Below, piece after piece: positions 1,884-29,981 of a DNA stretch of 32,000 nt. The position numbers and the translations under genes were made by a program. The stretch's first letter is position 1. Each line of letters begins with the position of its first letter. Under the pieces are notes generated by a model. The model was given only the letters and a program-made list of their open reading frames with translations, made no database searches and was not told where the DNA came from. Source of the DNA: Promethearchaeota archaeon. GTDB taxonomy: Archaea > Asgardarchaeota > Thorarchaeia > Thorarchaeales > Thorarchaeaceae. The stretch lies in contig JALVPN010000040.1 in NCBI GenBank assembly GCA_027031765.1, positions 121,536 to 153,535 on the forward strand. Direction: 5' to 3'.

Positions 1884-2867
1884 GTGCAGACAATGACTAT
1901 TGCAGTCCATGAAAGTGCACTAATACGACACTTCAACACTCGCAGAGAGACCTTACGTGCGTGGGAGGAACGCATTGGTGCCCGCTTCTCACCGTTTCGT
2001 GGGTTCAAGATGCCAGACAGTCGCTTGTACTGTGAACATCCAGATTTTCTGGACAGCATAGTGGACCTGATAATAACCAACGAACGGCACATATTCCTCC
2101 GGGGACCTGTCGGCTCTGGCAAAAGCACGCTGATGTTGCTGGCGCTGAGAGACTTGCCGACTTTGGCAGACCGCCGTGGTAACAAGTTCATTACAGGATA
2201 CGTAGGGATGACAGGGCTCTATGAGAAACAGATGGCGGCCGCAATAGCAGACTCGTTGCGTGTCAAGTACCGCCGGTCATGGGAATCGAGTCAAATCATT
2301 GAGGCTGTGGCGAGAGAGTGCGTCAGGCGGTACGTTGAGGAGCACTGTCGTACGGCGTTGTTCATAGAGGATGTGGCTGACAATCAGGAAGCTGCATTCC
2401 ACAAGCTCCGTTATCTAGCGGATCTCCCAACAGAGGAGATGAAAGAAGAATATGGGGGGGCCCTAGACGAGCCAGTAGTGACTTTGATTATGAGTGGCAC
2501 CATGATGTATTGGAATGCCATGTTGAGCTTCTTGCCGCAGATAGCCGATAGGACAGAACCCCTTGATGTGCCACCATTTGATGACGCGAAGGCAAAGGAG
2601 TTCATAGGACGACGACTGGCATACGCACGCGGTGAGATTGACAGCTTCGACCCTAATGACTTTGACATCTATCCCTTTGAGGAAGAGGCTATCGAGATAA
2701 TAAATGCTGCAGCTAGGGGGAACCCGCGGGACATAAGGATGCTCGCAAGAGGTTGCCAACAGGTGGCTGCTGAGCGGCTCAAGGAAACTGGGGACCCATC
2801 AATTACAGTTGAGATAGCAACACTCGTTGTCGATGCATATTCCGCACTTTTGAAGGAGGTGCAGTGA
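1884..2867 (+). CDS. ExeA/GspA-like AAA+ ATPase (short form, no peptidoglycan-binding or winged-helix tail); start may be ATG 1893
   Basis: FSPF...PD..Y leader, Walker A GPVGSGKS, Walker B variant ALFIEDV, sensor-1 strand LIMSGT, then PFDDAKAKEFIGRRL and FEEEAIEIINAAARGNPRDIRML. This is the ExeA (COG3267-like) layout. Confidence 0.8.
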   Translation: MQTMTIAVHESALIRHFNTRRETLRAWEERIGARFSPFRGFKMPDSRLYCEHPDFLDSIVDLIITNERHIFLRGPVGSGKSTLMLLALRDLPTLADRRGNKFITGYVGMTGLYEKQMAAAIADSLRVKYRRSWESSQIIEAVARECVRRYVEEHCRTALFIEDVADNQEAAFHKLRYLADLPTEEMKEEYGGALDEPVVTLIMSGTMMYWNAMLSFLPQIADRTEPLDVPPFDDAKAKEFIGRRLAYARGEIDSFDPNDFDIYPFEEEAIEIINAAARGNPRDIRMLARGCQQVAAERLKETGDPSITVEIATLVVDAYSALLKEVQ

Positions 2868-3178
2868 CTGTGAGCCTTCTGGGAAAGTACAGGCGTGAGG
2901 AGAAAGAGAGAGGCGAAGAGGAGCCGAAAAGAACACCTGCTGCCACTAGCAGTACACGCGTGGTAAGACGCCGGTCTACGGCCTCTTCAGTTCCCAACAA
3001 GGAGCGGAAAAGCCCGATAATGAGCTTCTCTGTGGCCTCTGACCTGCGTGCCTGTCTGCAGGCCGTCAGGATGGAGAAGGCAATCAATCTGAGCATGTGG
3101 GTTGAACGCACACTTAGGGAGGCTGTAATCAGAGAGTTCCCAGAGATTGCACAGGCTCATCTCCGTAGTGATGCATAG
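2864..3178 (+). CDS. Small protein with a flexible charged N-terminus and a C-terminal ribbon-helix-helix DNA-binding domain
   Basis: GTGA overlap with the ATPase stop. The C-terminus has a strand IMSFSV, helix ASDLRACLQAVRMEK, turn AIN and helix LSMWVERTLREAV, which is the RHH pattern. Confidence 0.7.
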   Translation: MTVSLLGKYRREEKERGEEEPKRTPAATSSTRVVRRRSTASSVPNKERKSPIMSFSVASDLRACLQAVRMEKAINLSMWVERTLREAVIREFPEIAQAHLRSDA

Positions 3179-10477: not shown

Positions 10478-12370
10478 TCACACACCTCCCTGTTTGATTG
10501 CCCCCTGAGGACAGACATGTACACAGCTACCGCAGTAGTTGCAAAGGGCTGGATCAATGGCAGCCTGACCCGTTTCCTGATTCAGATACATGGCAGGGCA
10601 GGAGAACCGGTTCAGACAACGCCGACATCCATTGCAGAGGTCCACATCAACGTAGTACGGCTCTGGAAACACACCCGTACTCCGCCGTTCAGCCGCAGTG
10701 AGCAGAGCGCATGGTGCACGCGAGACCAAGACACCTGGGGCACGGTTGTCCCTTACCCACTGCACTAGCTGACGCACCTCAGCGACTACTTCAGATAGTG
10801 GCTGAAACGGGTCTACAGTCCTAACATACTCCACGCCGAGACCCCTACACACATCCTCGATTCTTAGGGGCGGTACAGACTCCTGCATCCCAGTGAGTCC
10901 AGTTCCCGGATGTGGCTGGTGGCCGGTCATAGCAGTTGTACGATTGTCGAGGACAACCAGACAGATTGGATGGCGGTTGTACACAGCATTGGCGAGACCC
11001 GGCAGTCCTGATGCGAAGAAGGTGCTGTCCCCAATCGTCGCTACGACATCCTGGCCGGTCACGCGCGCAATGCCGCACGCAGTTGTTATTGAAGAACCCA
11101 TGTCAAAGAGGATGTCCGCTGTTTCAAGCGGAGGTGCAATGCTGAGAGTATAGCACCCAATATCCGACGGATATATCGCCTTCCCACGAGTCGCAGCACG
11201 GATTGCATAGTACGTAGCACGGTGCGGGCAGCCAGGACATAGCAGAGGAGGACGCGGTGGCAAGTCACGCACCGAACGGGCCCTCTCCTCAGCCGCATCC
11301 CAGTCAATCGGCGACTCGACACCAAGCACACCGGTCATGGCCCGCATCACAATACGAGTGTTGAACTCAAACGTCCGGGGGAGCACCCCCTGTTCCTTTC
11401 CAACAATACGGACATCAATACTATGAAGCTGTGCCAGACGGCGCAGGTGGGTTTCAAGGACAGGTTCGAGCTCTTCAACTACGAGAACAGTCGGATGTGC
11501 TTCTAGAAACCGTGCAATCATATCTTCAGGAACAGGATGAGTCATCCCGAGTTTCAATACAGCTGCACTGATACTTAGGGCCTCAATGGCCTCCCGCACA
11601 TAGTTGTAGGAAACCCCACTGGTCACAACACCAAACTCCCCCTCACCAGTGACAAAGTTCAGAGGAGTCGCTTCAGAAACCTCGCGTGCACGCTCGATTT
11701 GCCTCAACAGTGCAGGATGCTGCTTCCGTGCTACAGCAGGGATTGGGACGAAACGCAAGGGCTCCTTCTTAAACACTACATGTTCAGGAGGGCGTGCAAT
11801 TGGACCAAGGGGCACAGGAGCCCGGGTATGGTTCACACGAGTGGTGGTTCTCAGCAACACCGGCAGCTCAAGCTCCTCTGAAAGATCATACGCAGCAAGA
11901 ACCATAGCCTTGGCCTCTGCGGGATCAGCAGGCTCCAGCATGGGCATGTTGGCCATCAGTGCATAGTACCGGCTGTCATTTTCGTTCTGACTGCTCCACA
12001 TGCTGGGGTCGTCCGCAACTACAATGACCATGCCCCCACGCACCCCAACATATGCAAGTGAGAGGAACGGATCAGCAGCAACATTCAGGCCAGGGCCCTT
12101 ACATACCATCATTGACCGGACTCCTGCAACAGCGGCCGCACCGGCAACCTCAATCGCAACCTTTTCGTTGGCACTGAACTCAAAGTAGAAGTTCTCCATG
12201 TGCGGAGCCATCTGCGTGAGACTGTTTCCAATCTCGCTGCTCGGCGTCCCCGGGTACAATGCAACAAGCCGTACGCCCGCTTCGAGAACTGCACGCGCAA
12301 TGGCCTCATTTGCCAACAACAACAGCGTTTCCCCCACTGCGTCCTGCAACAGTTCCTTTGCTTTCACCAA
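10478..12370 (-). CDS. iorA: Indolepyruvate:ferredoxin oxidoreductase alpha subunit
   Basis: YPGTPSSEI, NEKVAIEVA, GLNVAADP, RPPLLCPGCPHR, SDIGCY, TPP motif GDSTF...DNRTTAMTG and a C-terminal 2x[4Fe-4S] ferredoxin. Confidence 0.97.
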   Translation of the reverse strand: MVKAKELLQDAVGETLLLLANEAIARAVLEAGVRLVALYPGTPSSEIGNSLTQMAPHMENFYFEFSANEKVAIEVAGAAAVAGVRSMMVCKGPGLNVAADPFLSLAYVGVRGGMVIVVADDPSMWSSQNENDSRYYALMANMPMLEPADPAEAKAMVLAAYDLSEELELPVLLRTTTRVNHTRAPVPLGPIARPPEHVVFKKEPLRFVPIPAVARKQHPALLRQIERAREVSEATPLNFVTGEGEFGVVTSGVSYNYVREAIEALSISAAVLKLGMTHPVPEDMIARFLEAHPTVLVVEELEPVLETHLRRLAQLHSIDVRIVGKEQGVLPRTFEFNTRIVMRAMTGVLGVESPIDWDAAEERARSVRDLPPRPPLLCPGCPHRATYYAIRAATRGKAIYPSDIGCYTLSIAPPLETADILFDMGSSITTACGIARVTGQDVVATIGDSTFFASGLPGLANAVYNRHPICLVVLDNRTTAMTGHQPHPGTGLTGMQESVPPLRIEDVCRGLGVEYVRTVDPFQPLSEVVAEVRQLVQWVRDNRAPGVLVSRAPCALLTAAERRSTGVFPEPYYVDVDLCNGCRRCLNRFSCPAMYLNQETGQAAIDPALCNYCGSCVHVCPQGAIKQGGV

Positions 12371-12446
12371 CCTGCCGACCTCGCGCCTTCGTCACAATGC
12401 CTCCCCAACAACTCGCACTATCAGTTTTATGGTGTCGGCCCACAGT

Positions 12447-12462
12447 TAGAACACGTGTTCTA
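12447..12462. repeat. Perfect 16-bp palindrome TAGAACACGTGTTCTA
   Basis: Self-complementary; its core GAACACGTGTTC recurs at 12681-12692. Confidence 0.85.
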
Positions 12463-12472
12463 TTCGTAAAGA

Positions 12473-12493
12473 CCCCTCTGTTTCGTGTGGAAC
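12473..12493 (-). other. Origin recognition box (ORB): GTTCCACACGAAACAGAGGGG on the minus strand
   Basis: Matches the archaeal ORB pattern GTTCCA...GAAAC plus G-string; 18/21 identical to the element at 12610. Confidence 0.85.
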
Positions 12494-12500
12494 TGGCAAG

Positions 12501-12590
12501 ACACAAAATATACCAATTAACCAAACATATTTATATCAGTTTTCAGTACGTGCCTTAAGCTCTTTCTAAATATATAACAACAAGTACATA
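12501..12590. other. AT-rich tract, candidate DNA-unwinding element (DUE)
   Basis: 66 of 90 bases are A/T by hand count (73%) against a roughly 45% AT background; lies between the inverted ORBs. Confidence 0.7.
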
Positions 12591-12609
12591 CAGGTCCAGC
12601 TCTTCAAGA

Positions 12610-12630
12610 GTTCCACTCGAAACAATGGGG
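12610..12630 (+). other. Origin recognition box (ORB): GTTCCACTCGAAACAATGGGG
   Basis: ORB core plus G-string, inverted relative to 12473-12493. Confidence 0.85.
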
Positions 12631-12631
12631 T

Positions 12632-12655
12632 GTATCACGGTACGGGTTGTATTAC
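12632..12655. repeat. Heptad pair GTATCAC (12632) / GTATTAC (12649)
   Basis: Read directly, immediately after the right ORB; the 17-bp offset is slightly off the 9-bp register. Confidence 0.45.
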
Positions 12656-12680
12656 TCGTGCTACAACGTTACGCTCTATG

Positions 12681-12692
12681 GAACACGTGTTC
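12681..12692. repeat. 12-bp palindrome GAACACGTGTTC (second copy)
   Basis: Identical to 12449-12460; overlaps the stop codon of the 12691 gene. Confidence 0.8.
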
Positions 12693-12996
12693 ATACAGCC
12701 ACGGGCAACTCGCGTTCGATGCTAAAGGCCCTCACTTTGAGGATATCACGGTAGTTGGCAAAGAGCTGGTCAAACTGATCCTTCATATGGACTGGTACCA
12801 TTATGGCTGAGTCGGTGACTACCTCGCATAGCGGTGACGAGTCGACTAGTCCCGGCTTTCGTCGCGTTTTGAGGCCGCCCCGTGTCTTCCATGTATATGT
12901 GTAGCCATAGAGCTCCTTTGTGAATGCAATCCTCCTGGCATTCCGTTGGCGTGAATTGATACAATCGTAGACATAGAGCACAGTTTCCATTGTCAA
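12691..12996 (-). CDS. Small hypothetical protein, possibly Cas2/VapD-like ferredoxin fold; start TTG 12996 or ATG 12990
   Basis: About 100 aa with a first strand VLYVYD ending in Asp, a helix, a basic insert WKTRGGLKTRRKPGL, and DSAIMVP..........F. Confidence 0.7.
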   Translation of the reverse strand: MTMETVLYVYDCINSRQRNARRIAFTKELYGYTYTWKTRGGLKTRRKPGLVDSSPLCEVVTDSAIMVPVHMKDQFDQLFANYRDILKVRAFSIERELPVAV

Positions 12997-13240
12997 CCGG
13001 TGCTCTTTCGCTCCCGGGCAGATTTGAAAATGCGTACTACAGGGGTTGTGCCAGCCTACAACGGTGGCATGCTACACGAGAGAATCCGCTTCCAGTATCC
13101 TACAAGTGTCATCCAATCCAGTACTCTTTTTTGCTTGTATGGATGGGGAAGACTTAAAGCCCCCATGTTGTGCGACTCGCAGTGCGCCGTTGTCGTGCAC
13201 AGACTATTGGCCACCTTGTAATCTCGACCTGGTGAGATGC

Positions 13241-14554
13241 ATGAATACGATTGGGCTACGGAGGGAAGACAAGCCCTTCGAGAGGCGAGTGCCACTGGTA
13301 CCGGAGCACGTCAGCGAGCTGATTGTTGCCCATGGCATTTCTTTTGTAGTTGAGCCCTCCCCGGATCGCGCTTTCACCAACAAGGAGTTCGAGTCGGCCG
13401 GAGCGAGGCTCGGTGACATCCGCAGCCCGGATGTCCGGGTAGTCCTTGGAATCAAGGAGATGCCTTCTGACCTCTTTGAGGCCGGAAATGTTTACGTCTT
13501 CTTCAGTCACACAATCAAGGGCCAAGAGCACAACATGCCGATGCTCCGTGCACTACTGAGTGCAGGTGCGACCTTGATAGACTATGAGTGTATCGTTGAT
13601 GATAGTGGTAGGCGCCTCATCTTCTTCGGCAACTGGGCGGGTATGGCTGGAATGGCTGACACACTTAGGGTCTTTGGGGCCCGACTGGCATACGAACGCA
13701 TATCGCCAAACCCTTTCCTTGATCTTCCACCAACGTACGAATGTGCCTCTCTCGACCATCTCCGTGGAGAGATTGCAAAGGTTGCCGAACGCATCGAGTC
13801 GCACGGACTGCCGGCATCCCTGAAACCTGTTGTTGTTGGCTTTGCAGGGTATGGAAATGTTTCTCGCGGGGCGCAAGAGTTGTTCGACATACTGCCCCAC
13901 GAAACCGTAGCACCAGAGGAGCTCGACGAGGTTGAGTCGACTGCTGATGTATTGTACAAGTGTGTCTTCAAGGAGGAGCACATGGTTGAACCGGCTGACC
14001 CGTCAATAGAGTTCGACCTCCAGGACTACTATAGACATGGGTCTTCAAAGTATCGTGGAGTCTTCGAGCGGTACATCCCATACTTAACGGTTCTAATGAA
14101 CTGTATCTTCTGGGCTGACAAGTATCCCCGTCTTGTAACAAAACGGTTCATTCGGGAACACTGGGTGAGCCCATCTAGGCGGCTCAAGGTTGTTGGTGAC
14201 ATTTCGTGTGACCTTGAAGGTGCCATCGAGTTCACTGTCATGACGACAAATCCTGAGAGCCCCGCCTTCACATACCTCGTGGATGAAGACCGCGCTGTGA
14301 GCGGAGTGGAGGGCAATGGGCCAGTAGTAATGGCAATCGACAACCTGCCAACGGAACTGCCGCGCGAGTCGTCGCGCTCCTTTAGCGAAACGCTACGTTC
14401 GTTCGTGCCACACATTGCCAAAGCCGACTTCGATGCTGACTTTGGTACACTAGACCTGCCCCCAGAGCTTATGCGGGCTGTAATAGTCTACCGTGGTCAG
14501 CTTACCCCCGACTATGAATACCTACACAAGTACCTAGAAGGAGTTGAACGCTGA
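13241..14554 (+). CDS. Lysine-ketoglutarate reductase-like / saccharopine dehydrogenase (AlaDh/PNT family, homologous to the LKR half of AASS); start moved to ATG 13241
   Basis: IGLRREDKPFERRVPLVPEHV, FFSHTIKGQEHNMPML, LIDYE, FFGNWAGMAG, GYGNVSRGAQE, DISCDLEGAIEF and MAIDNLPTELPRESS; GGTGA RBS at 13231. Confidence 0.9.
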   Translation: MNTIGLRREDKPFERRVPLVPEHVSELIVAHGISFVVEPSPDRAFTNKEFESAGARLGDIRSPDVRVVLGIKEMPSDLFEAGNVYVFFSHTIKGQEHNMPMLRALLSAGATLIDYECIVDDSGRRLIFFGNWAGMAGMADTLRVFGARLAYERISPNPFLDLPPTYECASLDHLRGEIAKVAERIESHGLPASLKPVVVGFAGYGNVSRGAQELFDILPHETVAPEELDEVESTADVLYKCVFKEEHMVEPADPSIEFDLQDYYRHGSSKYRGVFERYIPYLTVLMNCIFWADKYPRLVTKRFIREHWVSPSRRLKVVGDISCDLEGAIEFTVMTTNPESPAFTYLVDEDRAVSGVEGNGPVVMAIDNLPTELPRESSRSFSETLRSFVPHIAKADFDADFGTLDLPPELMRAVIVYRGQLTPDYEYLHKYLEGVER

Positions 14555-15886
14555 ATGAAGACAGTGCTCTGTCTCGGTGCTGGTCTTGTTGCAAGGCCAT
14601 ACATTCAATATCTGAGTGACAAGGGTTTCCACATGGTAGTGGCAAGCAGAACGCTGAGTAAGGCGGAGCACCTCATCGAGGGGTGCAAGAATGCGGAGGC
14701 AGTCGCCTTCAACATCCAGACGGACGACGAACTCCTAGACAAGCTCACTGCAAAGTCCGACTTGGTGTGCTCCCTCCTGCCGTATACGTTTCATGTCAAA
14801 GCTGCCAAGGTCGCTATCACTCAAAGGAAACCCTTCTGCACGACCTCCTATATCTCAAGTGCCATGCATGACCTCGATGACGCAGCCCGGTCGGCTGGCG
14901 TCCTCCTGCTGAATGAGTGTGGAGTCGATCCTGGGATTGACCACATGAGTGCCATGCGTATCATCGACGGTGTACATGACAAGGGCGGCAGGATAGTGAG
15001 CTTCACCTCATTCACGGGTGGGCTACCTGCACCCGATGCCAACAATAACCCCTTTGGCTACAAGCTCTCATGGAGCCCACGTGGGGTGCTCCTTGCAGGG
15101 CGCAACGATGCACACTTCCTCCGCGATGGAAATGAAGTCACCATCCCTGGCGCTGACCTGTTCGACCACTGCCAGATTATGGAAATCCCAACAGTGGGCC
15201 AGTTCGAAGGGTATCCTAATCGGGACAGCATGTCCTACATTGACATCTATGGTATTCCAGAAACACGTACGATGCTAAGGGGCACTCTGCGCAACCTTGG
15301 TTGGTGCAAGACGATGCGGACAATCGGGCGGCTTGGTCTCTTGGGTCTTGAGGAGCGGAGTTTCGCAGGCATGACGTATGCTGACCTGCTACGCTCGTTA
15401 GTAGCTGCCGACGCTGCCGGTGACAGCGTACGCACTGCTGTTGCACACCATGTGGGTCTTGCGCCCGACGACCCTGTAATCTCACGTCTTGAGTGGCTGG
15501 GACTGTTTGATGAAACCCAAATCCCCGAAGGCGTGAGCACCTGTCTAGATGCTCTGTGTCACCTCTTCGAACAAAAGCTACAGTATGCACCTGGTGAGCG
15601 TGACATGATTGTCATGCACCACGAGTTCATAGTCGACTACGGAAGCAATCGGAAGGAGCGGATTACTTCAACATTAGTAGACTACGGGATTCCAAACGGT
15701 GACAGCTCGATGTCGCGTACTGTCGCGCTGCCGGTAGCGATTGCGAGTAGAATGATACTTGAGGGATCACTCTCTCTAGTTGGTGTGCACCGGCCTGTAC
15801 TCCCGGAACTGTATAACCCCATACTCGACGAGCTGGAAGAGCTTGGGATAAAGTTTGTAGAGTCTGTAGTGGAACTTGAAGGGTGA
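14555..15886 (+). CDS. Saccharopine dehydrogenase (glutamate-forming, Lys9/AASS SDH-half homologue)
   Basis: LGAGLVA Rossmann motif, SLLPY, TTSY, NECGVDPGIDHMSA, SFTGGLPAP...NNPFGYKLSWSPRG, EGYPNRDS, RGTLR and MSRTVALP; TGAATG junction with the upstream gene. Confidence 0.93.
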   Translation: MKTVLCLGAGLVARPYIQYLSDKGFHMVVASRTLSKAEHLIEGCKNAEAVAFNIQTDDELLDKLTAKSDLVCSLLPYTFHVKAAKVAITQRKPFCTTSYISSAMHDLDDAARSAGVLLLNECGVDPGIDHMSAMRIIDGVHDKGGRIVSFTSFTGGLPAPDANNNPFGYKLSWSPRGVLLAGRNDAHFLRDGNEVTIPGADLFDHCQIMEIPTVGQFEGYPNRDSMSYIDIYGIPETRTMLRGTLRNLGWCKTMRTIGRLGLLGLEERSFAGMTYADLLRSLVAADAAGDSVRTAVAHHVGLAPDDPVISRLEWLGLFDETQIPEGVSTCLDALCHLFEQKLQYAPGERDMIVMHHEFIVDYGSNRKERITSTLVDYGIPNGDSSMSRTVALPVAIASRMILEGSLSLVGVHRPVLPELYNPILDELEELGIKFVESVVELEG

Positions 15887-16133
15887 GACTAGACTCTCAA
15901 ACGTTCCACTGGCTCCTCTCCCCACTGTGCTGCTGTGCTGTAGAATAACATCAGGGTCACTCAGTACTCTCCTTAGGGCAGCCACTCTTGTGGCGCTGGC
16001 CCGGTTCTCACCTCCAGCAATGGAACTCTCATTGCGTCCTTGCCGGTTGAGTATCTCCTGCCTAGCAGTACTTGTTGCCACAACAACTTGTCTGGCGCGT
16101 GCAGTGGTAGTCGCAGTAGAGTTCCGGGGACTG

Positions 16134-16766
16134 CTACTCTGGCGCTTCCACTTGAATGCTGGCCAAGATGTCCTCAGCCCTCTTGATCTCCTTGGCGACC
16201 TCCTGGAGTTCGGTTCTGAGACGATATGTATAGCCCGTCCTGTTCCCGAATCTCTCTAGGTGTCCTTTCCCTCCATTCCACATCCTTGCCAGGTATGTAG
16301 ATGCTGTACTCTTTGGCAGCTTCTCCTTGAAGGTCGCCTCATATATTTCCGCCACATCAAGTGATGAGAACTTGCCGTGCTTGAAGGACGCATAGATGAC
16401 AAGGTGCATCTTCTCATAGGTGCTCATCGATTCTATGTCAACCGGGATTGTAGTTGTTTCCGCCTCCTCCTCAAACGCAAAGACGTATCCCGTGCTGGTT
16501 TCAAGGAACACCTTGAACTTCACCAGCATCTCCTCTACTGCCCCACCTTTGACCTGAAAGCTAGACTCCTCACCAGTGCTCTCATCTGAAACACGTACCT
16601 TGAAGTCAAATGGGGAGTCGGCGAGTGCAAGGATTCTCCTGAAGCGTGCAAGCGCCTCGTCCGGCGTAACATATCTACACTGGAAAATCTCCTTGAGGCC
16701 TGGTGCCGAGCTATAGGTGAACTCGTAGACATAACTGGTTCGTACCTTACCTGGCAAGCTCGTCAC
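16134..16766 (-). CDS. Hypothetical protein with a C-terminal winged helix-turn-helix; start may be TTG 16757
   Basis: C-terminal FSSLDVAEIYEATFKEKLPKSTASTYLARM...LERFGNRTGYTYRL is a wHTH pattern; AGGTGA RBS overlaps the GTG and sits 5 nt before the TTG. Confidence 0.8.
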   Translation of the reverse strand: MTSLPGKVRTSYVYEFTYSSAPGLKEIFQCRYVTPDEALARFRRILALADSPFDFKVRVSDESTGEESSFQVKGGAVEEMLVKFKVFLETSTGYVFAFEEEAETTTIPVDIESMSTYEKMHLVIYASFKHGKFSSLDVAEIYEATFKEKLPKSTASTYLARMWNGGKGHLERFGNRTGYTYRLRTELQEVAKEIKRAEDILASIQVEAPE

Positions 16767-16859
16767 CTTTTATTGATTCACAACATTAATTGCACACCCA
16801 TAAATTAAGTGTGAGTGTGTGAACAACCAGTATCTGCGTATGTGGCGTGTATTACGTGG

Positions 16860-16880
16860 TTGCCCTGTTTCGGAGGAAAG
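16860..16880 (-). other. Degenerate ORB-like element (CTTTCCTCCGAAACAGGGCAA on the minus strand)
   Basis: Shares TTCC..CGAAACAGGG with the other ORBs, only about 13/21 match; inverted relative to 17046. Confidence 0.4.
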
Positions 16881-17045
16881 ACATCTCTAGCACCCAGTTA
16901 TACACAGTATAGTGCGGTTCCGTCCGCATACGGCATTATCCACAGTGTTAGCCAACGATTCCAGCCTCCTTCCAACCCGTCGCAGTTTCACACTGTTATG
17001 ACCTCTGTGAACATGGAACCCACAAAGCATTGCTCTCCTAACCGT

Positions 17046-17066
17046 GTTCCACTGGAAACAGGGGGG
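17046..17066 (+). other. Origin recognition box (ORB): GTTCCACTGGAAACAGGGGGG
   Basis: Near-canonical ORB with a six-G string; 18/21 identical to 12610-12630. Confidence 0.8.
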
Positions 17067-17138
17067 TAGTTCGATTCACAAACACTTACAGCCGTATGAG
17101 TCCTGCACTGTGGCAAACGGGACTCCATATCCTCACGA

Positions 17139-17253
17139 ACTGCCGGGTGTTCACATAGAAGGCGCCAAACGGGCTGCAGTTCTGTGAATGCCTGTAACTG
17201 GGGTGAATGCTGTTGATTGTCAGTTGGACTGCCAAATGTTCACATCGAAGGCG
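17139..17253 (+). repeat. Imperfect 26-bp direct repeat ACTGCC-NNN-TGTTCACATNGAAGGCG (17139-17164 and 17228-17253)
   Basis: 22/26 identical; 89-bp period. Confidence 0.75.
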
Positions 17254-17353
17254 TGTCTTGGCACTCAATAGGGGCAAAGCCGCGCTCGGGGCCTGTGTAT
17301 CACACCACACCTTGTCATATGGTCTTGCAAGCTTGCAGCGACACGAGCTGGGT

Positions 17354-18574
17354 CTACAGGAAGTCCGTGCATATCACCCTGATGGCATCAAGCAGCTTCT
17401 CACAGTCCTCATGGGTGTTGTAACCGTGAATTGACACCTGCACGATACCCTCCTCGGACAGTGGTCGCACAAGCGGATGTGCACATAGGAGCCCACTTCT
17501 TACAGCTATGTCCAGTTGATCCAAGAAGAGTGCAACGTCGTGGCAGCTCATCTTGGTGCTCCCGTCTTCTATGTTGAAGCCTATTATAGTGGACTTGTCA
17601 TCAGGCATACCATATAGTTGTACCTGTGCATTCTCTTGAAGCCCTTCCACTATGTATCCCATAATGTGCTCTAAATGTCTGACGAGTCCGCGGCCGTGCA
17701 GCTCCTTGATGTAGTCAATTGCAGCCCCAAGGCCCGTTACTCCAGCTATGTTGAAGACAGCACCGGACTCAAATCTGTCCGGGGGAAGCGCCACCTCAAA
17801 AGTGTCTGACGAAACACCAGCCACCGAAGCGGCGCCAAGGACTCCTGGTACGAACTCCAATGCGCTTCTCCTGCTCATCCACTGTACGGAGATACCAGGT
17901 GGGCCCATTAGTCCAATGTTTCCTGAGAAGAGTGCTGCGTCCACCTTGATTGAGTTGACAAGCCCCGGCTCAAATGCGATGGATTGCGTGACGTCGACGA
18001 GTGTGAAAGCGCCATGCGACTTGGAAACATCGGCGAGTTCCCGTACGGGGCTCCTTCGTCCCAGTCCTACAGGCACATGACCGATTGTAACAATGCCGGT
18101 CTGTTCATCAACAGCACTTTCAAAGGTTTCGACATCAATCTGGCCGGTTTCAGAAACTGGTACGAAGCTCACTCTGAGCCCCAAGACCTGCGCAGCCCGG
18201 AAAGCGCTGACAAGTACTGAATGGTCCAGGTTCAGGCACACGACAATCTTGTTACGACCAAGCTCCTTCCATGGATAGCCGTATACGGTTGACGCTACAG
18301 CAGACTCCACTGATGCCTGGAAGGAAACCTCCGCAGCCTCTACACCCATGAATGCGGCAATGTGGCTCCGTGCACGTTCTAGTTCCTCATTCCCTTTCAC
18401 AGCCCGCCTATGTGCTCCTCTTCTTGACGAAACACATACCTCGTTCAAGAAGTGTGAAATTGAGTCAACTACAGTTCGTGGGACAAGTGTGGTGCTGGCA
18501 GAGTCAAAATATGCCAGCTCAGGGTGCTTGCGAAAGACTTCAAAGTCCGACTTGATATCCAGCCCTGTCGACAT
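17354..18574 (-). CDS. SufS/cysteine desulfurase-like class V aminotransferase fold lacking the PLP-binding lysine; start likely ATG 18574
   Basis: AYFDSASTT, SRRGAH, DHSV, LVDVTQS, RFESG and VRSGLLCAHPL are recognisable, but the SGHK motif reads SGNI. Confidence 0.85.
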   Translation of the reverse strand: MSTGLDIKSDFEVFRKHPELAYFDSASTTLVPRTVVDSISHFLNEVCVSSRRGAHRRAVKGNEELERARSHIAAFMGVEAAEVSFQASVESAVASTVYGYPWKELGRNKIVVCLNLDHSVLVSAFRAAQVLGLRVSFVPVSETGQIDVETFESAVDEQTGIVTIGHVPVGLGRRSPVRELADVSKSHGAFTLVDVTQSIAFEPGLVNSIKVDAALFSGNIGLMGPPGISVQWMSRRSALEFVPGVLGAASVAGVSSDTFEVALPPDRFESGAVFNIAGVTGLGAAIDYIKELHGRGLVRHLEHIMGYIVEGLQENAQVQLYGMPDDKSTIIGFNIEDGSTKMSCHDVALFLDQLDIAVRSGLLCAHPLVRPLSEEGIVQVSIHGYNTHEDCEKLLDAIRVICTDFL

Positions 18575-18627
18575 GGATTCGGCTTGCTCAGTGTTCCTTT
18601 TATTTGATGTGAACATAGCGCAGATGT

Positions 18628-19629
18628 ATGGACTTGCAACTCCCCCCCATAGAGGCGTTCATGCTGGTGACTCCGGAGGACTACATCTTTGAAGTCAAAG
18701 GTGTGTTACATCCACCCGGGCGAGTTGTGGCGTACCTGCGCTATGTCCCTAACGACGGTGGCCCTCGTGAAACCACTCACGGACTGCGGTACAAGAAGAT
18801 ATATGCCCTACGAGATAGAACAGAGTTTCTCCGCTCTCACGCCCCAGAATACCTCTGGTTCGACCCGTACTCCGGACGTGGACTACAGAGTGTGCCCATG
18901 AAGCGTATCGTGCGACTGCTCGACCCAACACGGGAAGTACAACAACGGCGCTCCATCAGCCCACTATACTTGGTGGCAGATGACCTCGTTGACTTCATTG
19001 CGGACGAGAGTGGTGTTCCGGGGGACTGTATTGGGTTGACAGGATCCTTGCTTTGCGGAATCTCGACACCGACTTCTGATATTGACATTGTTGTCTATGG
19101 GGCAACTGCTGGCCAGAAGGTATATGATGCAATAGGGGCCGTCGATGGTGATACGTTGCAGAGGTATCATGGCGAGGCCTTGGATAGTCTTGCACGTTCA
19201 AGGTGGGGCGGTCTTCCGGGGCTCATCGATATTCATCGTCACCTTGAAGCCCGAAAAAGGCTGCAAGGGTACTTTCATGGGTCTGAGTTCTTCATACGGC
19301 TCGTGAAGCTACCATGGGAGGTCGATGTGCAGTACGGTGATGTTTCATATACACCATTGGGCCGTGCGGAAATCCGTGACTGTGTGATAACAAGTAATGA
19401 GGATATGATATACACACCCTGCCTCTACGAGGTCGTGTCTAGCTCGTGGCCTGAGGTGAAAGAGATAGTCAGCTACCGTGGCCGCTTCACAGAACAGGCA
19501 TCAGTTGGTGACCGTGTAACCGTACGTGGGCGCCTTGAACGAGTGTTGCACCCCAACCGTGGAGAGTACTGGCGCATTGTCGTCGGAGAAGACCCGGCAG
19601 ACTATATGATTCCCGCCAGTGCTAGGTGA
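18628..19629 (+). CDS. Predicted pol-beta-type nucleotidyltransferase (COG1665-like, uncharacterised archaeal family)
   Basis: IFEVKGVLHPPGRVVAYLRYVP, GLTGSLLCG....SDIDIVVYG (GS...DxD motif), SYRGRFTEQA..GD.V.VRG.LE. Confidence 0.8.
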   Translation: MDLQLPPIEAFMLVTPEDYIFEVKGVLHPPGRVVAYLRYVPNDGGPRETTHGLRYKKIYALRDRTEFLRSHAPEYLWFDPYSGRGLQSVPMKRIVRLLDPTREVQQRRSISPLYLVADDLVDFIADESGVPGDCIGLTGSLLCGISTPTSDIDIVVYGATAGQKVYDAIGAVDGDTLQRYHGEALDSLARSRWGGLPGLIDIHRHLEARKRLQGYFHGSEFFIRLVKLPWEVDVQYGDVSYTPLGRAEIRDCVITSNEDMIYTPCLYEVVSSSWPEVKEIVSYRGRFTEQASVGDRVTVRGRLERVLHPNRGEYWRIVVGEDPADYMIPASAR

Positions 19630-24649: not shown

Positions 24650-25702
24650 TCAAGGCATATGTGCATCGACAGTAGGTGAACTGTGATTGTCTGCACCATG
24701 ACGATTAACCGCATCCTGTGCGAGGACTCTCTTTATCACACCATAATGGTCTCGTATGCTATATTCGGCGACCTCTGTGGCCAATGATGCCAGCTTTTGT
24801 GTAAGTACAGCCCGCCGCCCGCTCTCTCTAGCCAACATCCGATCTGCAGCATACGCTACTGAGACTGCAAAGATGAAGGGGTTTCGACCACCACGTTTAA
24901 TACTCGGAATTCGGTCGAGTATTCGGCCCATAGTCTTTCTTAATTTTGCGCCGTAGTCATTCAGACCCCATCCACGCTGTGCGGCCTTTCGTACTACTGC
25001 CTCATTGTTCAACAACATCGACAGAACACGTGGCACATAGTCCTCTGGCCGTCTCAAATCCGGCGCGAACCCTGTTTCTAGCTTTAGTTTCATGGCCTCT
25101 CGGACTATAGCCCGCACACTCACGCGGTGCCCGCACCGTTCAAACGCGCTTGCCAGCTCCTCAAGAGTAATTGGCGCGTCATCTCTGAACTCACGAATTG
25201 CCACTAGGAGGCACACTGCCATCAACACTATATTGTTCGAGAAGCGTGCAGTCCCGTCCGCTGTAATCTTCTTGTACAAGTATGCTCCTCTGTCACGTAC
25301 CTGTCTTCCGAGCATCAACAGTTGCGCAACCCTGTTGAGCGTCCTCGGGGTCCGGTATCGAGTTTCGCACGACCCCACTCGCACACGTGCACCATATACT
25401 GCCTTTAGGCGCAGGAACCGCTTCTGAGTGCTCGCAGGCAGGGCCTTGCCACTGGCATCCCTAAAGTAACGATCTCTGTGATACCCTATGTAGCTGCCAA
25501 GCCCATCTACTATGTGCGGCCTGTTGCCCAGTGAAGCATACATGCTGGCATCTGGCCTATCGAGATCCTGTTCATCACCCAACTGATAGGTGGGCGATAC
25601 GTATTCCCGTGAAACAACGAGTCCACATTCTCTGCAAACAATATGACCGGCGCTAGTTGTCAGGAATCCCTGACATTCAGGACAACACCATGCCTCGAGC
25701 AT
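24650..25702 (-). CDS. Divergent transcription factor IIB (TFB) paralogue; start set to ATG 25702
   Basis: Zn ribbon CPECQG...VCRECGLV, two cyclin-like repeats, GRNP..FA..V.YAA, and a C-terminal HTH TQKLASLATEVAEYSIRDHY; GGAGG RBS 5 nt before the ATG. No EWR B-reader motif is visible. Confidence 0.85.
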   Translation of the reverse strand: MLEAWCCPECQGFLTTSAGHIVCRECGLVVSREYVSPTYQLGDEQDLDRPDASMYASLGNRPHIVDGLGSYIGYHRDRYFRDASGKALPASTQKRFLRLKAVYGARVRVGSCETRYRTPRTLNRVAQLLMLGRQVRDRGAYLYKKITADGTARFSNNIVLMAVCLLVAIREFRDDAPITLEELASAFERCGHRVSVRAIVREAMKLKLETGFAPDLRRPEDYVPRVLSMLLNNEAVVRKAAQRGWGLNDYGAKLRKTMGRILDRIPSIKRGGRNPFIFAVSVAYAADRMLARESGRRAVLTQKLASLATEVAEYSIRDHYGVIKRVLAQDAVNRHGADNHSSPTVDAHMP

Positions 25703-26168
25703 GTCGGCCTCCGCTATGACATGTTGGTCTTCGGTCAAGTACCACACCCAATACTCTGATGCTCCAATGACCTAACTACCTTCCACCATCAGTTTGTACG
25801 CTGGATGCCACACTGAAATCCCTTGAACAGGTCGGCTCGTCTGGCAGGTGACCTCCTACGGCCCACTCCGAATGAGAGGTGGGCGAAACTATTCGACCGA
25901 CAAAGTCATCGCCATGCTGATTAGCCCTCTTCGAGAGAACCCACCCCTACAGTTGCCCGCACCTCTCCTCTGTAACTGTAGACTCACTTGTCCCTTCAGT
26001 GCTTCCATCGCAGTCCCGTGTCCTCTCAACGCGGCCTGTTTCCGCCTGCAGCACCCAAGCGGCCCTAGGATTGGTGGGGCCGACACGTTCTCAGGCCACT
26101 CTTACCAGTCTTCAATGGTCTTCACTCTCAGGACAGAACTGCAAGACCACTCGAACTGCGCCCGTACG

Positions 26169-29100
26169 TTATTCCCATAGCAATGAGCTTGCACTAATGG
26201 CTTCCCATACAGTTGCCACTCTCAAATAGTCTGGCAGCATCATTCCGCTATCCAGATACTCTTCAGCCGACAAGATGCACACAATGCGATTCGTCGAACA
26301 CTCCCTGCACACCGCATCCGCACCGGTCTGTGCGAGCGTCTTGAGTCGCTCCTGACTTGGGAAGACGACTACCGATGTCTGTCCAGCACATATGTCATAG
26401 TTCTCGTGTCCTTTGCGCACATTGCCATAGGCACGCCTGAGCCGCTCCTCAAGTCTGACTATCACCTCATGTTTCACTTCTCCTAGAACCTTTGGTGTCA
26501 CTATCCAAAGACCTTCATCGAGCACCTCAAGTGCTACGTCCTGAATCCGGACAGCAACTAGCGTTTCATCTGCCAGCATCTCGACCAGTGCCTGACGTCC
26601 CTCTTCAATGTCAAGTGAAGTGACTCTACCCTTTGCAGACTGGGCTGCTGTTGTGTCAATGAACTGGACTAAGTCGTCCCATTCGACCCTGCCGTCTGCA
26701 GACTCTACAAAATCATGGAGGAGTTGAACCCATATCTTTTGCTCTGTCGCACGACTCATGGGTCTTGGTCGCCACTCCGCTATCGGACACATCAACGACT
26801 GCTCACCAGCTCGGCTGCCGCAATCCGTCGACGGCATGTCAGTGGCTACTTGGGCATCCCCAGCTCCAGACATGGTCATGGCCATTTCACCGTGATCCTG
26901 CTCCTCCTTGGATGGGGCGTCATGGGCCAACGCCTCGTCCACAACAGCATCAAGTGAAGATGCAAAGGCCGAAACAATCGTGACCGCATCGTATTCCTCC
27001 CCGTCGAGCAGCTCGCGAATCATGGTTGCCGCAACGCTTCCGCGCACTACTACCACTATGTTTTCGACCTCGTTTTCATGTCCAGAGCGTGTGTGAGCAA
27101 TCCTGTCAACTATCTCGTCCATCGTCCTCCTCTCAATGTGCTCCGGGACGACCATTACGAGTTGTCTATTGACAATCAGTTTTCTATTGTCAAGTCGTTT
27201 CACAGTCCCCCCTCTGCTCTTGACCGCCTCAGCGATGTACTCCATAATCACCCCGGCTACTGCTTCTCGCACCTTGCCCGCAAGCGCATACACAAACCCC
27301 CCTGCTGCAATGGCTATGGCCTCTCTTTCTAGCAGGCCGATTGCTAGCAGTTCATCGACTACCTCGTCAGTCCTTGCGCTTGGTATTATTCCCTCAATCA
27401 GGCTGCAAAGTGCGCTGTGCACAATTCCGGGCTTGACAGAGAGCCGTGCCGTAACAGATCTGACGACCTCGTCAAACAACGTGTCCGTCGCAATGGTCGT
27501 TCCACGTACTTCAGCCGTTTCTGCGTCTTGGTTCAGTGGTGTCACGGAGTCCTCGATTTCTGGGCTGTCTGTTGCATGAGAAGGCACAGCTCTGTCAACA
27601 CTCTTGAGAGGTTCTGTTTCGATTTCGAATGTTTCAGTACTGGGTATTGCGACAAGCGCATGTCCCCGTGGCATCACACGGAGGTACCTTTCCTGTTCGC
27701 TGTCAAGGGACATGTACCGTGCGCCAACAGCACTATCATACGGCAGTCGGAACATAATCCTAGTCGCAGCATTTGCAAGGATATTGGAAGAAACATTGGG
27801 CCGGGTTGACACGACAATAACTCCCTGACCTGTTGCTCTCTGTAGCAAGACCATAGACTCGCCCGTGCTCACATCAGCCGCATCTTGTCTAACATAGCTC
27901 TCTGGTACAAGGTTGCTTGCCTCCTCAAGTACGACTACATGCTGCAGCCCCCTTGCAAGACCACGCCTCATGCCATGGTCGAAAATCCTCTTTGCAACGA
28001 GGTTGTACAGTATGCGCGCGGCATCCATCCCTCCTACCATCGATACATATCTGAGGTCAAATACGACCCTCCGCCCCATCAACTCTGAGATTCTTATTGC
28101 GTCCTCCCCCCCTTTGAGGATTGACCCAAGTGGCTCCCGTGTTAGCACCCGAAGCCTGTTGACCAAGGCATCCCTTGTGAGCACGCCCACACCGCTAGCC
28201 TCGGCCACCCTCTCGACTATCATCTGCAACCCTCGGATAGACCCTTCATCAGACTGTACCGCCTCTAGCACGGCATCTGCTAGGAGACGCTCCATAGCGG
28301 GCGTCAACTCTGTAGACTCACTGCGCTCGTGCAGTAGCTCCCTGATAATCCTGAAGAGTGCATAGGCGTGTTGCTCCTCCTCTTCTCCGTCCTCCGCACG
28401 GAGGACATCGAGCACGACAGATGGGTCGAACCCAGGGGTCAGCACTGTCACATCATCGACTCCGTATGTGGAGAGGTCGGAGTACTCCGACCCTTTGACA
28501 TCAAAGATCCACCAAGGGACATCAGTCTTCTTACTGAGTTCCACCATCAGCGTCTTGACCATGGTGGTCTTGCCGGTTCCGGTTGCGCCTAGGACTAAGA
28601 CATGTTCAGTCAGCCACTCCGGCTGCAGCCCGACCGTTCTCAGCCTCCTTCCACGGAAAAGACAGTGCCCGATTACCAGCTGATTGTCAATCGCATCCGC
28701 TGGTGGTATGGGGAATGTCGGGACTCTGGCTGACGTCACTATTGGGAGCTGTTGGGTTGGAGGGCTGAAGTATGCAACGACCTTCTCGGCTGGCAAGCGT
28801 GTGGGTTGGATGTGCCGCCGTGTCACACGTCGTAACTGAGTACGCGTACTAGCTTTCATGTCCCTGACCTCGATTGTCCCGCTTCCTCCCCATATCGACA
28901 GTACAAGCCCCCTCATTGCGTCTAGGACAAGCGGATCATCGTTTCTGACTAAGACAATTGTCGTTGTGTCAAACCAGACGGCTTCGTTGGCAAGCGTTGC
29001 GTACTCCGATATGAGACGCTTCTTCAGCGCCTGATCCGCCAGACTGTCCTGGCTCCGCCGTTCTTTATCTCGAATTGACCTCCACTCGCTTTCCAGGTGC

Positions 29101-29981
29101 TTCCGCTCCTTTGAAGGCGCTGCCTTGGTGATTGTACATGACAGCGAAGCTGACCAACCCTGTTTCAGCAGAGTGGTCAGAAACCTGCCGACTTGGGAAT
29201 TCCCCCGGGTCATCTTGGCCATCGGGATACCACGAATGATGATACCCTTTTCTTTGCAGTGTCCGAGCTCCATCAGACCGCGGTCACCAGCAGCCTCACT
29301 TGAGCAGCTGCTCACTACTGCGCGTTGCAGTGCCTCCCCTGCCAGCATTGCTACTTGGGCACCATCAAACATTGTCAGCATTATGGCCTCCAGTCGAGTT
29401 GCCTCCCTCTGGAGCCCGTCCCTCAGCTCGGCTTCGGACTCGCCGACAAGCGTTACAACAATTCGCAAGAATGGGCTGCCCTCTGCAACGCCGGCCTCGT
29501 ATGTGACAGAAGTCCTGTTATCCATTCCCATGCGGATGGCAAGGAGCATCGATGTGTCATAGGTTGGCTGTTCCTCAGCTGTCAACTCCTCTATCTGGAG
29601 AGCCCCAAGCTGGAAGCATATACTACCAAAGACCTTGTTCCCCACTTCCACAAACAGGAACTCGCCATCTACAGAAACCACCGGCCTGTCGACAAGAAGA
29701 TGGATGACAGTCCTCATAGCTGCGGCGGAGGAAAGGCATCCACATATCAAGAGTTCAACCATGCGCCTTCCCGGGATGACGGGGACATGTGTGTCAGTGG
29801 CAAGCGGGATGAGATAGACCACCACCAGATAGCTTGTGCCAAAGATGAGTGCACACCACCATAATGCTGCAACAAAGGTCTCGAAACGCCTGTGTACATC
29901 ATGGAGTGCACCATCGTCCGAGTCTGCCCGGGACTCCTCGTACTTCTCTGGCTGCATCTGTAGTTGAGTGTCCACTGCCAT
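26169..29981 (-). CDS. Large membrane-anchored HerA/FtsK/VirB4-like (DUF87-type) ATPase with long N- and C-terminal extensions
   Basis: N-terminal hydrophobic helices; HVLVLGATGTGKTT Walker A, WWIFDVKGSEY, VVVLEEAS Walker B, GQGVIVVSTRP and ILANAATRIMFRL. Confidence 0.88.
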   Translation of the reverse strand: MAVDTQLQMQPEKYEESRADSDDGALHDVHRRFETFVAALWWCALIFGTSYLVVVYLIPLATDTHVPVIPGRRMVELLICGCLSSAAAMRTVIHLLVDRPVVSVDGEFLFVEVGNKVFGSICFQLGALQIEELTAEEQPTYDTSMLLAIRMGMDNRTSVTYEAGVAEGSPFLRIVVTLVGESEAELRDGLQREATRLEAIMLTMFDGAQVAMLAGEALQRAVVSSCSSEAAGDRGLMELGHCKEKGIIIRGIPMAKMTRGNSQVGRFLTTLLKQGWSASLSCTITKAAPSKERKHLESEWRSIRDKERRSQDSLADQALKKRLISEYATLANEAVWFDTTTIVLVRNDDPLVLDAMRGLVLSIWGGSGTIEVRDMKASTRTQLRRVTRRHIQPTRLPAEKVVAYFSPPTQQLPIVTSARVPTFPIPPADAIDNQLVIGHCLFRGRRLRTVGLQPEWLTEHVLVLGATGTGKTTMVKTLMVELSKKTDVPWWIFDVKGSEYSDLSTYGVDDVTVLTPGFDPSVVLDVLRAEDGEEEEQHAYALFRIIRELLHERSESTELTPAMERLLADAVLEAVQSDEGSIRGLQMIVERVAEASGVGVLTRDALVNRLRVLTREPLGSILKGGEDAIRISELMGRRVVFDLRYVSMVGGMDAARILYNLVAKRIFDHGMRRGLARGLQHVVVLEEASNLVPESYVRQDAADVSTGESMVLLQRATGQGVIVVSTRPNVSSNILANAATRIMFRLPYDSAVGARYMSLDSEQERYLRVMPRGHALVAIPSTETFEIETEPLKSVDRAVPSHATDSPEIEDSVTPLNQDAETAEVRGTTIATDTLFDEVVRSVTARLSVKPGIVHSALCSLIEGIIPSARTDEVVDELLAIGLLEREAIAIAAGGFVYALAGKVREAVAGVIMEYIAEAVKSRGGTVKRLDNRKLIVNRQLVMVVPEHIERRTMDEIVDRIAHTRSGHENEVENIVVVVRGSVAATMIRELLDGEEYDAVTIVSAFASSLDAVVDEALAHDAPSKEEQDHGEMAMTMSGAGDAQVATDMPSTDCGSRAGEQSLMCPIAEWRPRPMSRATEQKIWVQLLHDFVESADGRVEWDDLVQFIDTTAAQSAKGRVTSLDIEEGRQALVEMLADETLVAVRIQDVALEVLDEGLWIVTPKVLGEVKHEVIVRLEERLRRAYGNVRKGHENYDICAGQTSVVVFPSQERLKTLAQTGADAVCRECSTNRIVCILSAEEYLDSGMMLPDYLRVATVWEAISASSLLWE

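Follow-up and report, generated by a model that had tools for sequence, protein, structure and literature searches.

The window analysed here is a 32,000-nucleotide stretch (G000:C40:121536-153535) of a 229-contig MAG of 2.95 Mb with a mean AT content of 40.8%. The presumed Asgard host is borne out and can be placed in the Thorarchaeota, as the better-scoring of its Orc1 proteins shares 77-86% identity with proteins from Candidatus Thorarchaeota MAGs. On the left of the region of interest lies iorA (positions 10478..12370 of the window, minus strand), recognized by its Pfam TPP, POR and Fer4 matches. The gene is syntenic and 68-76% identical in relatives and forms a conserved left border. On the right lies a conserved small gene on the same strand (12691..12996, minus) that encodes 101 amino acids. 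A pair of origin recognition boxes (ORBs) occupies the spacer between the two, where the original prediction had located it. The gene order of the family runs from iorA through the ORB pair and the small ORF to genes for an AlaDH-like protein and a saccharopine dehydrogenase, then to u210 (16134..16766, minus), which encodes a 210-amino-acid protein with a C-terminal winged helix-turn-helix, and finally to a third ORB.

A repeat search places the left box, ORB-L, at 12472..12494 on the minus strand and the right box, ORB-R, at 12609..12631 on the plus strand. The two arms of 23 nt lie 114 nt apart and are identical at 20 of 23 positions after reverse complementation. The G-string of ORB-L points away from the intervening DNA and ORB-R is inverted relative to it, which upholds the claim of two inverted ORBs with outward G-strings. 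Each arm has the sequence AGTTCCAC[A/T]CGAAACA..GGGGT, which combines the canonical ORB dyad with a G-string. The 114-bp tract that these inverted boxes flank (12495..12608), a putative duplex unwinding element, is 66.7% AT (68% over 12500-12600). The value of 73% given originally does not stand, but the tract is extreme for this genome, in which only a fraction of 1.7e-5 of all 114-bp windows are as AT-rich. It contains TATA-like boxes, which probably drive iorA, and an alignment of 12 genomes shows a conserved BRE/TATA-like AAAGTATAAATA motif inside it.

The third full box, ORB3 (GTTCCACTGGAAACAGGGGGGT, 17046..17067, plus), lies 4.4 kb from the pair. A PWM built solely from the ORBs of relatives, applied to both strands of the whole 2.95-Mb genome with a cut-off of 18 bits, returns four sites. 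Three fall in the window, namely ORB-L (24.7 bits), ORB-R (29.2 bits) and ORB3 (29.5 bits, the best in the genome), so that the locus holds three full ORBs scoring 24.7-29.5 bits. The fourth is on contig C110 (25.0 bits), and the next-best site in the genome reaches 16.2 bits. Strict ORB patterns agree with the PWM on the rarity of such sites. Because only four sites genome-wide exceed 18 bits, ORB-like boxes are not common operators scattered through the chromosome, the alternative against which the original prediction had set its own reading. A degenerate, inverted ORB-like sequence at about 16863-16882 is not counted as an ORB, its score with the family PWM being below 12 bits.

The ORB pair is bracketed by two copies of a 12-bp palindrome, GAACACGTGTTC, found by repeat search at 12449..12460 and 12681..12692. 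The left copy is nearly invariant in 12 genomes, and the right copy overlaps the stop codon of the small ORF. The genome contains three copies in all, each beside an ORB: the two here and one located 133 bp from the ORB on C110. The palindrome is present in all 24 family genomes, at 1-15 copies each, whereas a control pattern is found at a frequency of about zero. We know of no comparable bracketing palindrome in oriC1 of Sulfolobus solfataricus or of Aeropyrum pernix. The interval delimited in the original prediction spans both palindromes, which its interpretation left unused.

Other elements of the spacer are conserved as well. Between iorA and the left palindrome, the 12-genome alignment reveals an element TATCAGT(T/C)TT..GG (12418..12437) in which columns T57, T58, G61 and G62 are invariant and their neighbours nearly so; it may be part of the leader or promoter of iorA. 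Close to iorA, the spacer alignment shows a conserved TATCAGTCTTGTGG footprint. A TTGTATTAC motif at 12647..12655 can be read directly in the sequence and the alignment, and GTAATAC/GTATTAC motifs, read by eye in the alignment, recur around the palindromes in relatives. The gene-free region around ORB3 (16767..17353, 587 bp) holds 8 of the 29 TTCACA matches of the window, several of which contain half-sites of the GAACACGTGTTC palindrome, and a 26-nt direct repeat (17139-17164 and 17228-17253). An Rfam scan of positions 12000-18000 found no family. At 17354-19629, the gene pair encoding an aminotransferase and p333 is inverted relative to its orientation in three relatives (G009, G019 and G041), which therefore puts a rearrangement breakpoint at the ORB3 spacer.

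The module as a whole is conserved. The order of palindrome, minus-strand ORB, AT-rich tract, plus-strand ORB and palindrome is kept in 12 genomes from at least 10 genera, with a start-to-start spacing of the ORBs of 138 bp here and 138-144 bp in the 11 relatives. Mean column identity in the spacer alignment of these 12 genomes is 37%, with the palindromes and ORB cores invariant or nearly so. Of 24 family genomes, 23 contain the ORB motif, at one to three copies each (control pattern, about zero), and throughout the family a syntenic equivalent of ORB3 is found at a distance of 3.8-4.4 kb from the pair. Related layouts are recognizable in other Asgard families. In G029, the order is ORB pair, a u210-like gene on the minus strand, ORB and Orc1-A; in G030 and G040, it is ORB pair, small ORF, ORB, u210-like gene and Orc1-A. 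Families f6 and f7 carry ORBs of the same consensus within 1.5 kb of Orc1-A, and family f8 has a single ORB about 2.5 kb away. In f6, the spacer equivalent to the ORB3 region separates u210 from Orc1-A. A captured plasmid or viral origin, which would be patchily distributed, accompanied by integrase or mobile genes and unlike the host in composition, was considered and rejected: in 12 genomes the same housekeeping genes flank the module in synteny, and it can be recognized in other Asgard families. Pfam scans of the neighbouring genes show no integrase.

Strand composition changes at the same place. The large contigs of the genome each hold one sign of purine (RY) skew. Contig C40, the source of the window, departs from this pattern: on its plus strand, purines prevail from position 1 to about 134 kb and pyrimidines beyond. 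The change point, at 133.5 kb, has a score of 24, compared with at most 8.7 elsewhere among the 57 contigs of at least 15 kb, and is the sole plus-to-minus switch of purine skew in that set. Cumulative AT skew has its maximum at 133,859, 145 bp from the ORB pair at 134,004-134,169. Gene orientation is mixed. Because the sign also changes in intergenic DNA and in the third codon positions of plus- and minus-strand genes alike, the skew is not a coding-strand artefact, and a bias in gene orientation is rejected as its cause.

The coincidence of skew and boxes recurs elsewhere, in two related genomes and in one from another Asgard family. The AT-skew peak of G019, at 235,175, falls inside the ORB pair and between palindromes at 235,053 and 235,255; that of G009 is within 1.3 kb of its ORB pair. 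In G030, which belongs to the same phylum and a different family and on which the polarity was calibrated, the ORB pair is directly upstream of Orc1-A and the AT-skew peak at 942,318 falls inside it (942,247 and 942,400), with the same purine-to-pyrimidine polarity as here. The skew analysis proposed with the original prediction has thus yielded a sign change of both purine and AT skew at the ORB pair. In each of the four genomes the GC-skew peak is displaced from the pair, by 7-28 kb, leaving AT skew as the precise component. The signal varies among genomes: the closed relative G041 (CP070658.1), which has the same ORB module, shows no detectable skew in 60 stretches of 20 kb or in local analysis, and the closed outgroup G036 shows a weak one. 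The four genomes with strong purine and AT asymmetry (G000, G019, G009 and G030) have in common that the strand leaving the site is pyrimidine-rich (T>A, C>G) and that their GC-skew polarity is the reverse of that expected under the bacterial rule by which origins have been placed in other Asgard genomes. The G+C content dips around the proposed origin.

The genome encodes two true Orc1/Cdc6 proteins. Models TIGR02928 and PF09079 match only on contig C190 and at C40:159.9-161.1 kb, confirming that the 32-kb window lacks a true orc1/cdc6 gene. The protein on C190, Orc1-A, is of the Orc1-1 class (TIGR02928, 423.8 bits) and matches the crystallized ORB-bound proteins 2QBY_A and 2V1U_A at 362 and 360 bits, respectively. 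Its true start is the ATG at L008:2663; the GTG listed as the start, at 2729, probably lies too far upstream. Gene order in G009 indicates that C190 continues from the right end of C40, which would put a distance of about 47 kb between Orc1-A and the ORB pair. Eleven genomes have Orc1-A and the ORB cluster on one contig; the two are never adjacent, and the distance between them is 58-152 kb except in G041, where it is 1.02 Mb. Reviews describe the core Orc1 copy as normally adjoining its origin (PMC4010727; PMC5333045). That proximity, typical and not mechanistically required, is absent from all 24 family genomes searched, and the separation is a trait of the family and not of this genome alone. 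The proposal of a distant Orc1/Cdc6 acting in trans stands as to the lack of adjacency, with the distances refined to about 47 kb for the Orc1-1-class protein and 26 kb for its Orc1-2 paralogue.

Upstream of Orc1-A (L008:2663-2740, minus), a TTAATA box comes first, and between it and the ATG lie two TTCCAGTGGAA mini-ORBs and a degenerate third, a predicted signature of autoregulation. On C190, the ORF upstream of orc1-A shows no relationship to u210. The paralogue Orc1-B (C40:159,907-161,106) is of the Orc1-2 class and closest to Pyrobaculum aerophilum Cdc6 (1FNN) and the A. pernix ORC2 class. In the 22 family genomes with Orc1-B and the ORB cluster on one contig, a count that includes G000 and G041, the distance between them is mostly 19-25 kb, with exceptions at 12.5, 38 and 45 kb. 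The DNA upstream of orc1-B contains no ORB, only a tRNA gene and TTGACAT repeats. By eye, the tRNA-like gene (L009:5556-5650, C40 ~159.55-159.65 kb) lies just upstream of orc1-B and has an apparent intron, and three TTGACAT repeats are found near it.

The ORB on C110 occurs in a different setting. At 59.85-60.0 kb of that contig (59840-60030; L007:7840-8030), a GAACACGTGTTC palindrome and a TATA-like box accompany one full ORB, which lies upstream of the p137-p213 operon, about 20 bp from its start codon. This arrangement is syntenic in G022, G010 and G024, representing at least three other genera. With no skew switch on C110 and a promoter-like context, the candidacy of the site as a second origin was set aside and it is read as an operator, probably an Orc1-controlled promoter and possibly a weak second origin. 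The operator-like character of this site implies a promoter function for ORBs in this lineage as well; therefore, the AT-rich tract at the pair probably doubles as the iorA promoter region. Given ORBs in promoter settings both on C110 and ahead of Orc1-A, the presence of an ORB is by itself no proof of an origin.

Two proteins of the locus travel with the ORBs. The small ORF product (alignment A1) is 48-59% identical within the family and about 41% identical in another Asgard family, and its gene accompanies the ORB pair in two or more Asgard families. Its model has a ferredoxin/Cas2-like fold (pLDDT 92); Foldseek returns only weak ferredoxin-like, Cas2 and CutA matches, with the best superpositions on Cas2. 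Searches of the ESM Atlas yield only 'hypothetical protein' clusters, and these suggest relatives in other archaeal phyla. The C-terminal domain of u210 (alignment A2), in its predicted structure, matches RosR, PadR, MarR and MecI winged helices at a probability of 1.0. A distance of about 280-335 bp always separates the u210 gene from ORB3, and in other families the gene adjoins Orc1-A. Pfam detects no significant family in the small ORF product, u210, p137 or p333. Its winged helix and the palindrome half-sites in its upstream spacer make u210 a candidate palindrome-binding protein.

Taken together, these data are best explained if the iorA/small-ORF intergenic region is the main, possibly the only, chromosomal replication origin (oriC), a reading to which we assign a probability of roughly 85% on the sequence evidence. 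The original interpretation is supported in its essentials by the ORB pair, the extreme AT tract, the rarity of the sites, the skew switch and the conservation of the module. As the genome is a 229-contig MAG, other origins may lie on unassembled or short contigs. The observed sequence elements, with their rarity, conservation, gene positions and strand-composition switch, allow a path of binding, melting and firing to be inferred. By homology with Sulfolobus and Aeropyrum oriC1, Orc1-A monomers would bind the two inverted ORBs with the dyad halves facing the 114-bp tract. MCM would be loaded at the AT-rich tract, which would melt, and forks would leave both ways. Orc1-A would act in trans from a gene about 47 kb away on the next contig, the two being separated across the whole family.

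The layouts in other Asgard families point to a compact ancestral origin that may have comprised three ORBs, the small ORF, u210 and orc1-A. ORB3 would be the third ORB of this ancestral origin, formerly situated between u210 and orc1-A. Insertion of the AlaDH-like and saccharopine dehydrogenase genes would have displaced it, and orc1-A would have moved away in the Thorarchaeota family. The GAACACGTGTTC palindromes may be sites for a dimeric, lineage-specific DNA-binding protein, for which u210 is one candidate and which probably modulates the use of the origin or of promoters embedded in it. A more elaborate version, and a doubtful one, is a two-layer origin in which Orc1-1 acts in trans on the ORBs and a dimeric factor, with u210 as the best candidate, acts on GAACACGTGTTC, licensing or repressing firing and co-regulating a small regulon that includes the p137-p213 promoter. 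Were this correct, it would be a circuit of cell-cycle control for which no archaeal example has been described.

Some of the same elements could be viewed as nothing more than gene regulation, with the ORBs and palindromes serving only as transcriptional operators for iorAB and its neighbours and no replication starting here. Such a role would agree with the palindrome-TATA-ORB-gene arrangement that is conserved at C110 in the absence of a skew switch, with the mini-ORBs that separate the TATA box of orc1-A from its ATG, with the conserved BRE/TATA-like motif in the AT-rich tract, and with the regulon-like abundance of the palindrome in relatives, where it reaches 15 copies per genome. It leaves unexplained, however, the skew switch at this position in G000, G019 and G009 and the matching polarity of G030, as well as the strictly kept inverted pair with its 138-144-bp spacing. 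Operator and origin roles are, moreover, not exclusive, and a purely transcriptional function is improbable. The site could instead be one of several origins, served by the nearby Orc1-B in place of Orc1-A. The remarkably constant distance of Orc1-B from the ORB cluster, mostly 19-25 kb compared with 58 kb to 1 Mb for Orc1-A, argues in its favour, as does the second ORB-plus-palindrome site on C110. But Orc1-B is of the 1FNN/ORC2 class, not the ORB-bound Orc1-1 class, and copies of its class are reported never to be origin-linked and to be dispensable for initiation in Sulfolobus (PMC5333045). The missing ORB upstream of orc1-B, the presence of the same ORBs beside Orc1-A in outgroup families and the absence of a skew switch on C110 also count against Orc1-B as the cognate initiator, which we regard as very improbable.

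The switch itself can be turned around, to mark a replication terminus or zone of fork convergence where forks meet. By the bacterial rule of a G-rich leading strand, a terminus lies at the GC-skew maximum, and the plus strand does change from G>C to C>G here. Against this stand the ORB pairs with their AT-rich tract, which are origin elements, and the AT component of the skew (T>A on the strand leaving the site), which fits an origin even by the bacterial rule. Because the polarity is the same at the Orc1-A-adjacent ORB pair of G030, and because experimentally mapped Sulfolobus origins lie at the RY-disparity maximum (PMC3000693), a terminus is disfavoured, to the point of being extremely unlikely.

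Read as an origin, the site is, as far as its sequence can tell, canonical in kind, an ORB-DUE origin. It resembles oriC1 of S. solfataricus and A. pernix in its full inverted ORBs (a TTCCA.TGGAAA dyad and a GGGG string) around an AT-rich tract, in the third ORB nearby in the ancestral layout, in an Orc1-1-class initiator (2QBY, 2V1U; 360-362 bits) and in an RY-disparity maximum at the origin (PMC3000693). It differs from them in that the initiator gene is about 47 kb away (58 kb-1 Mb in relatives), ORB3 has been displaced 4.4 kb by metabolic genes and 12-bp palindromes bracket the pair. Origins of Pyrococcus and other Thermococcales and haloarchaeal oriC1 share the ORB consensus and the ORB-DUE logic, and Orc1-A is 48-54% identical to their Orc1. 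In those systems, however, the initiator gene adjoins the origin (PMC4010727; PMC5333045), a link that is broken family-wide here.

Sulfolobus oriC3, with its WhiP protein, provides a parallel for an origin with no adjacent orc1 and a conserved neighbouring winged-helix gene, here u210. Unlike that system, the present locus has canonical ORBs, and u210 has a single C-terminal winged helix of RosR/PadR/MarR type and coexists with an adjacent Orc1-A in other Asgard families. A WhiP/Cdt1-type origin, in which the neighbouring initiator carries tandem Cdt1-related winged helices and canonical ORBs are not needed, was rejected: u210 has one winged helix, a Cdt1-containing entry appears only at rank 49 (probability 0.63) and canonical ORBs are present.

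In the searchable literature, we found no ORB-level description of Asgard origins, only inference from GC skew (PMC11291895; PMC9246712). Those predictions, for Atabeyarchaeia and Freyarchaeia (PMC11291895) and Odinarchaeum (PMC9246712), were made from cumulative GC skew with the bacterial minimum rule and name no ORBs. The present analysis shares with them the use of strand asymmetry to infer bidirectional replication and differs in proposing an origin at the sequence level, at the AT/RY maximum. The features that appear new are the family-wide separation of the Orc1-1 gene, the displacement of the third ORB by 4.4 kb and the invariant palindromes that bracket the ORB pair.

If the assignment is correct, the locus would represent a sequence-defined Asgard origin conserved across a family, one that the common shortcut of searching beside orc1/cdc6 would miss in every member. 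It would also indicate that the normally tight linkage of a core initiator gene to its origin can be lost and stay lost. AT and purine skew, and not GC skew, would mark the origin in these genomes, with a polarity opposite to the bacterial GC-skew rule that has been applied to other Asgard genomes. The locus could be used for peak-to-trough estimates of growth from metagenomes, and it supplies material for experiment in the form of three ORBs, two palindromes, Orc1-1-class and Orc1-2-class proteins and two origin-linked unknown proteins.

Several further genes in the window deserve mention. A divergent Orc-like AAA+ protein of 327 amino acids (1884-2867, plus), which is without a winged helix, has sub-threshold Pfam matches to AAA_22 and ORC-CDC6-like. 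It is followed by a 104-amino-acid ORF that overlaps its stop by 4 bases, the pair spanning 1884-3178 on the plus strand and lying 9.6 kb from the proposed origin. On the other side, a divergent TFB-like protein (24650-25747, minus) with weak TFIIB zinc-ribbon and cyclin-repeat matches is encoded next to a 1270-amino-acid HerA/FtsK-like ATPase (26169-29981, minus), both about 12-17 kb from the proposed origin.
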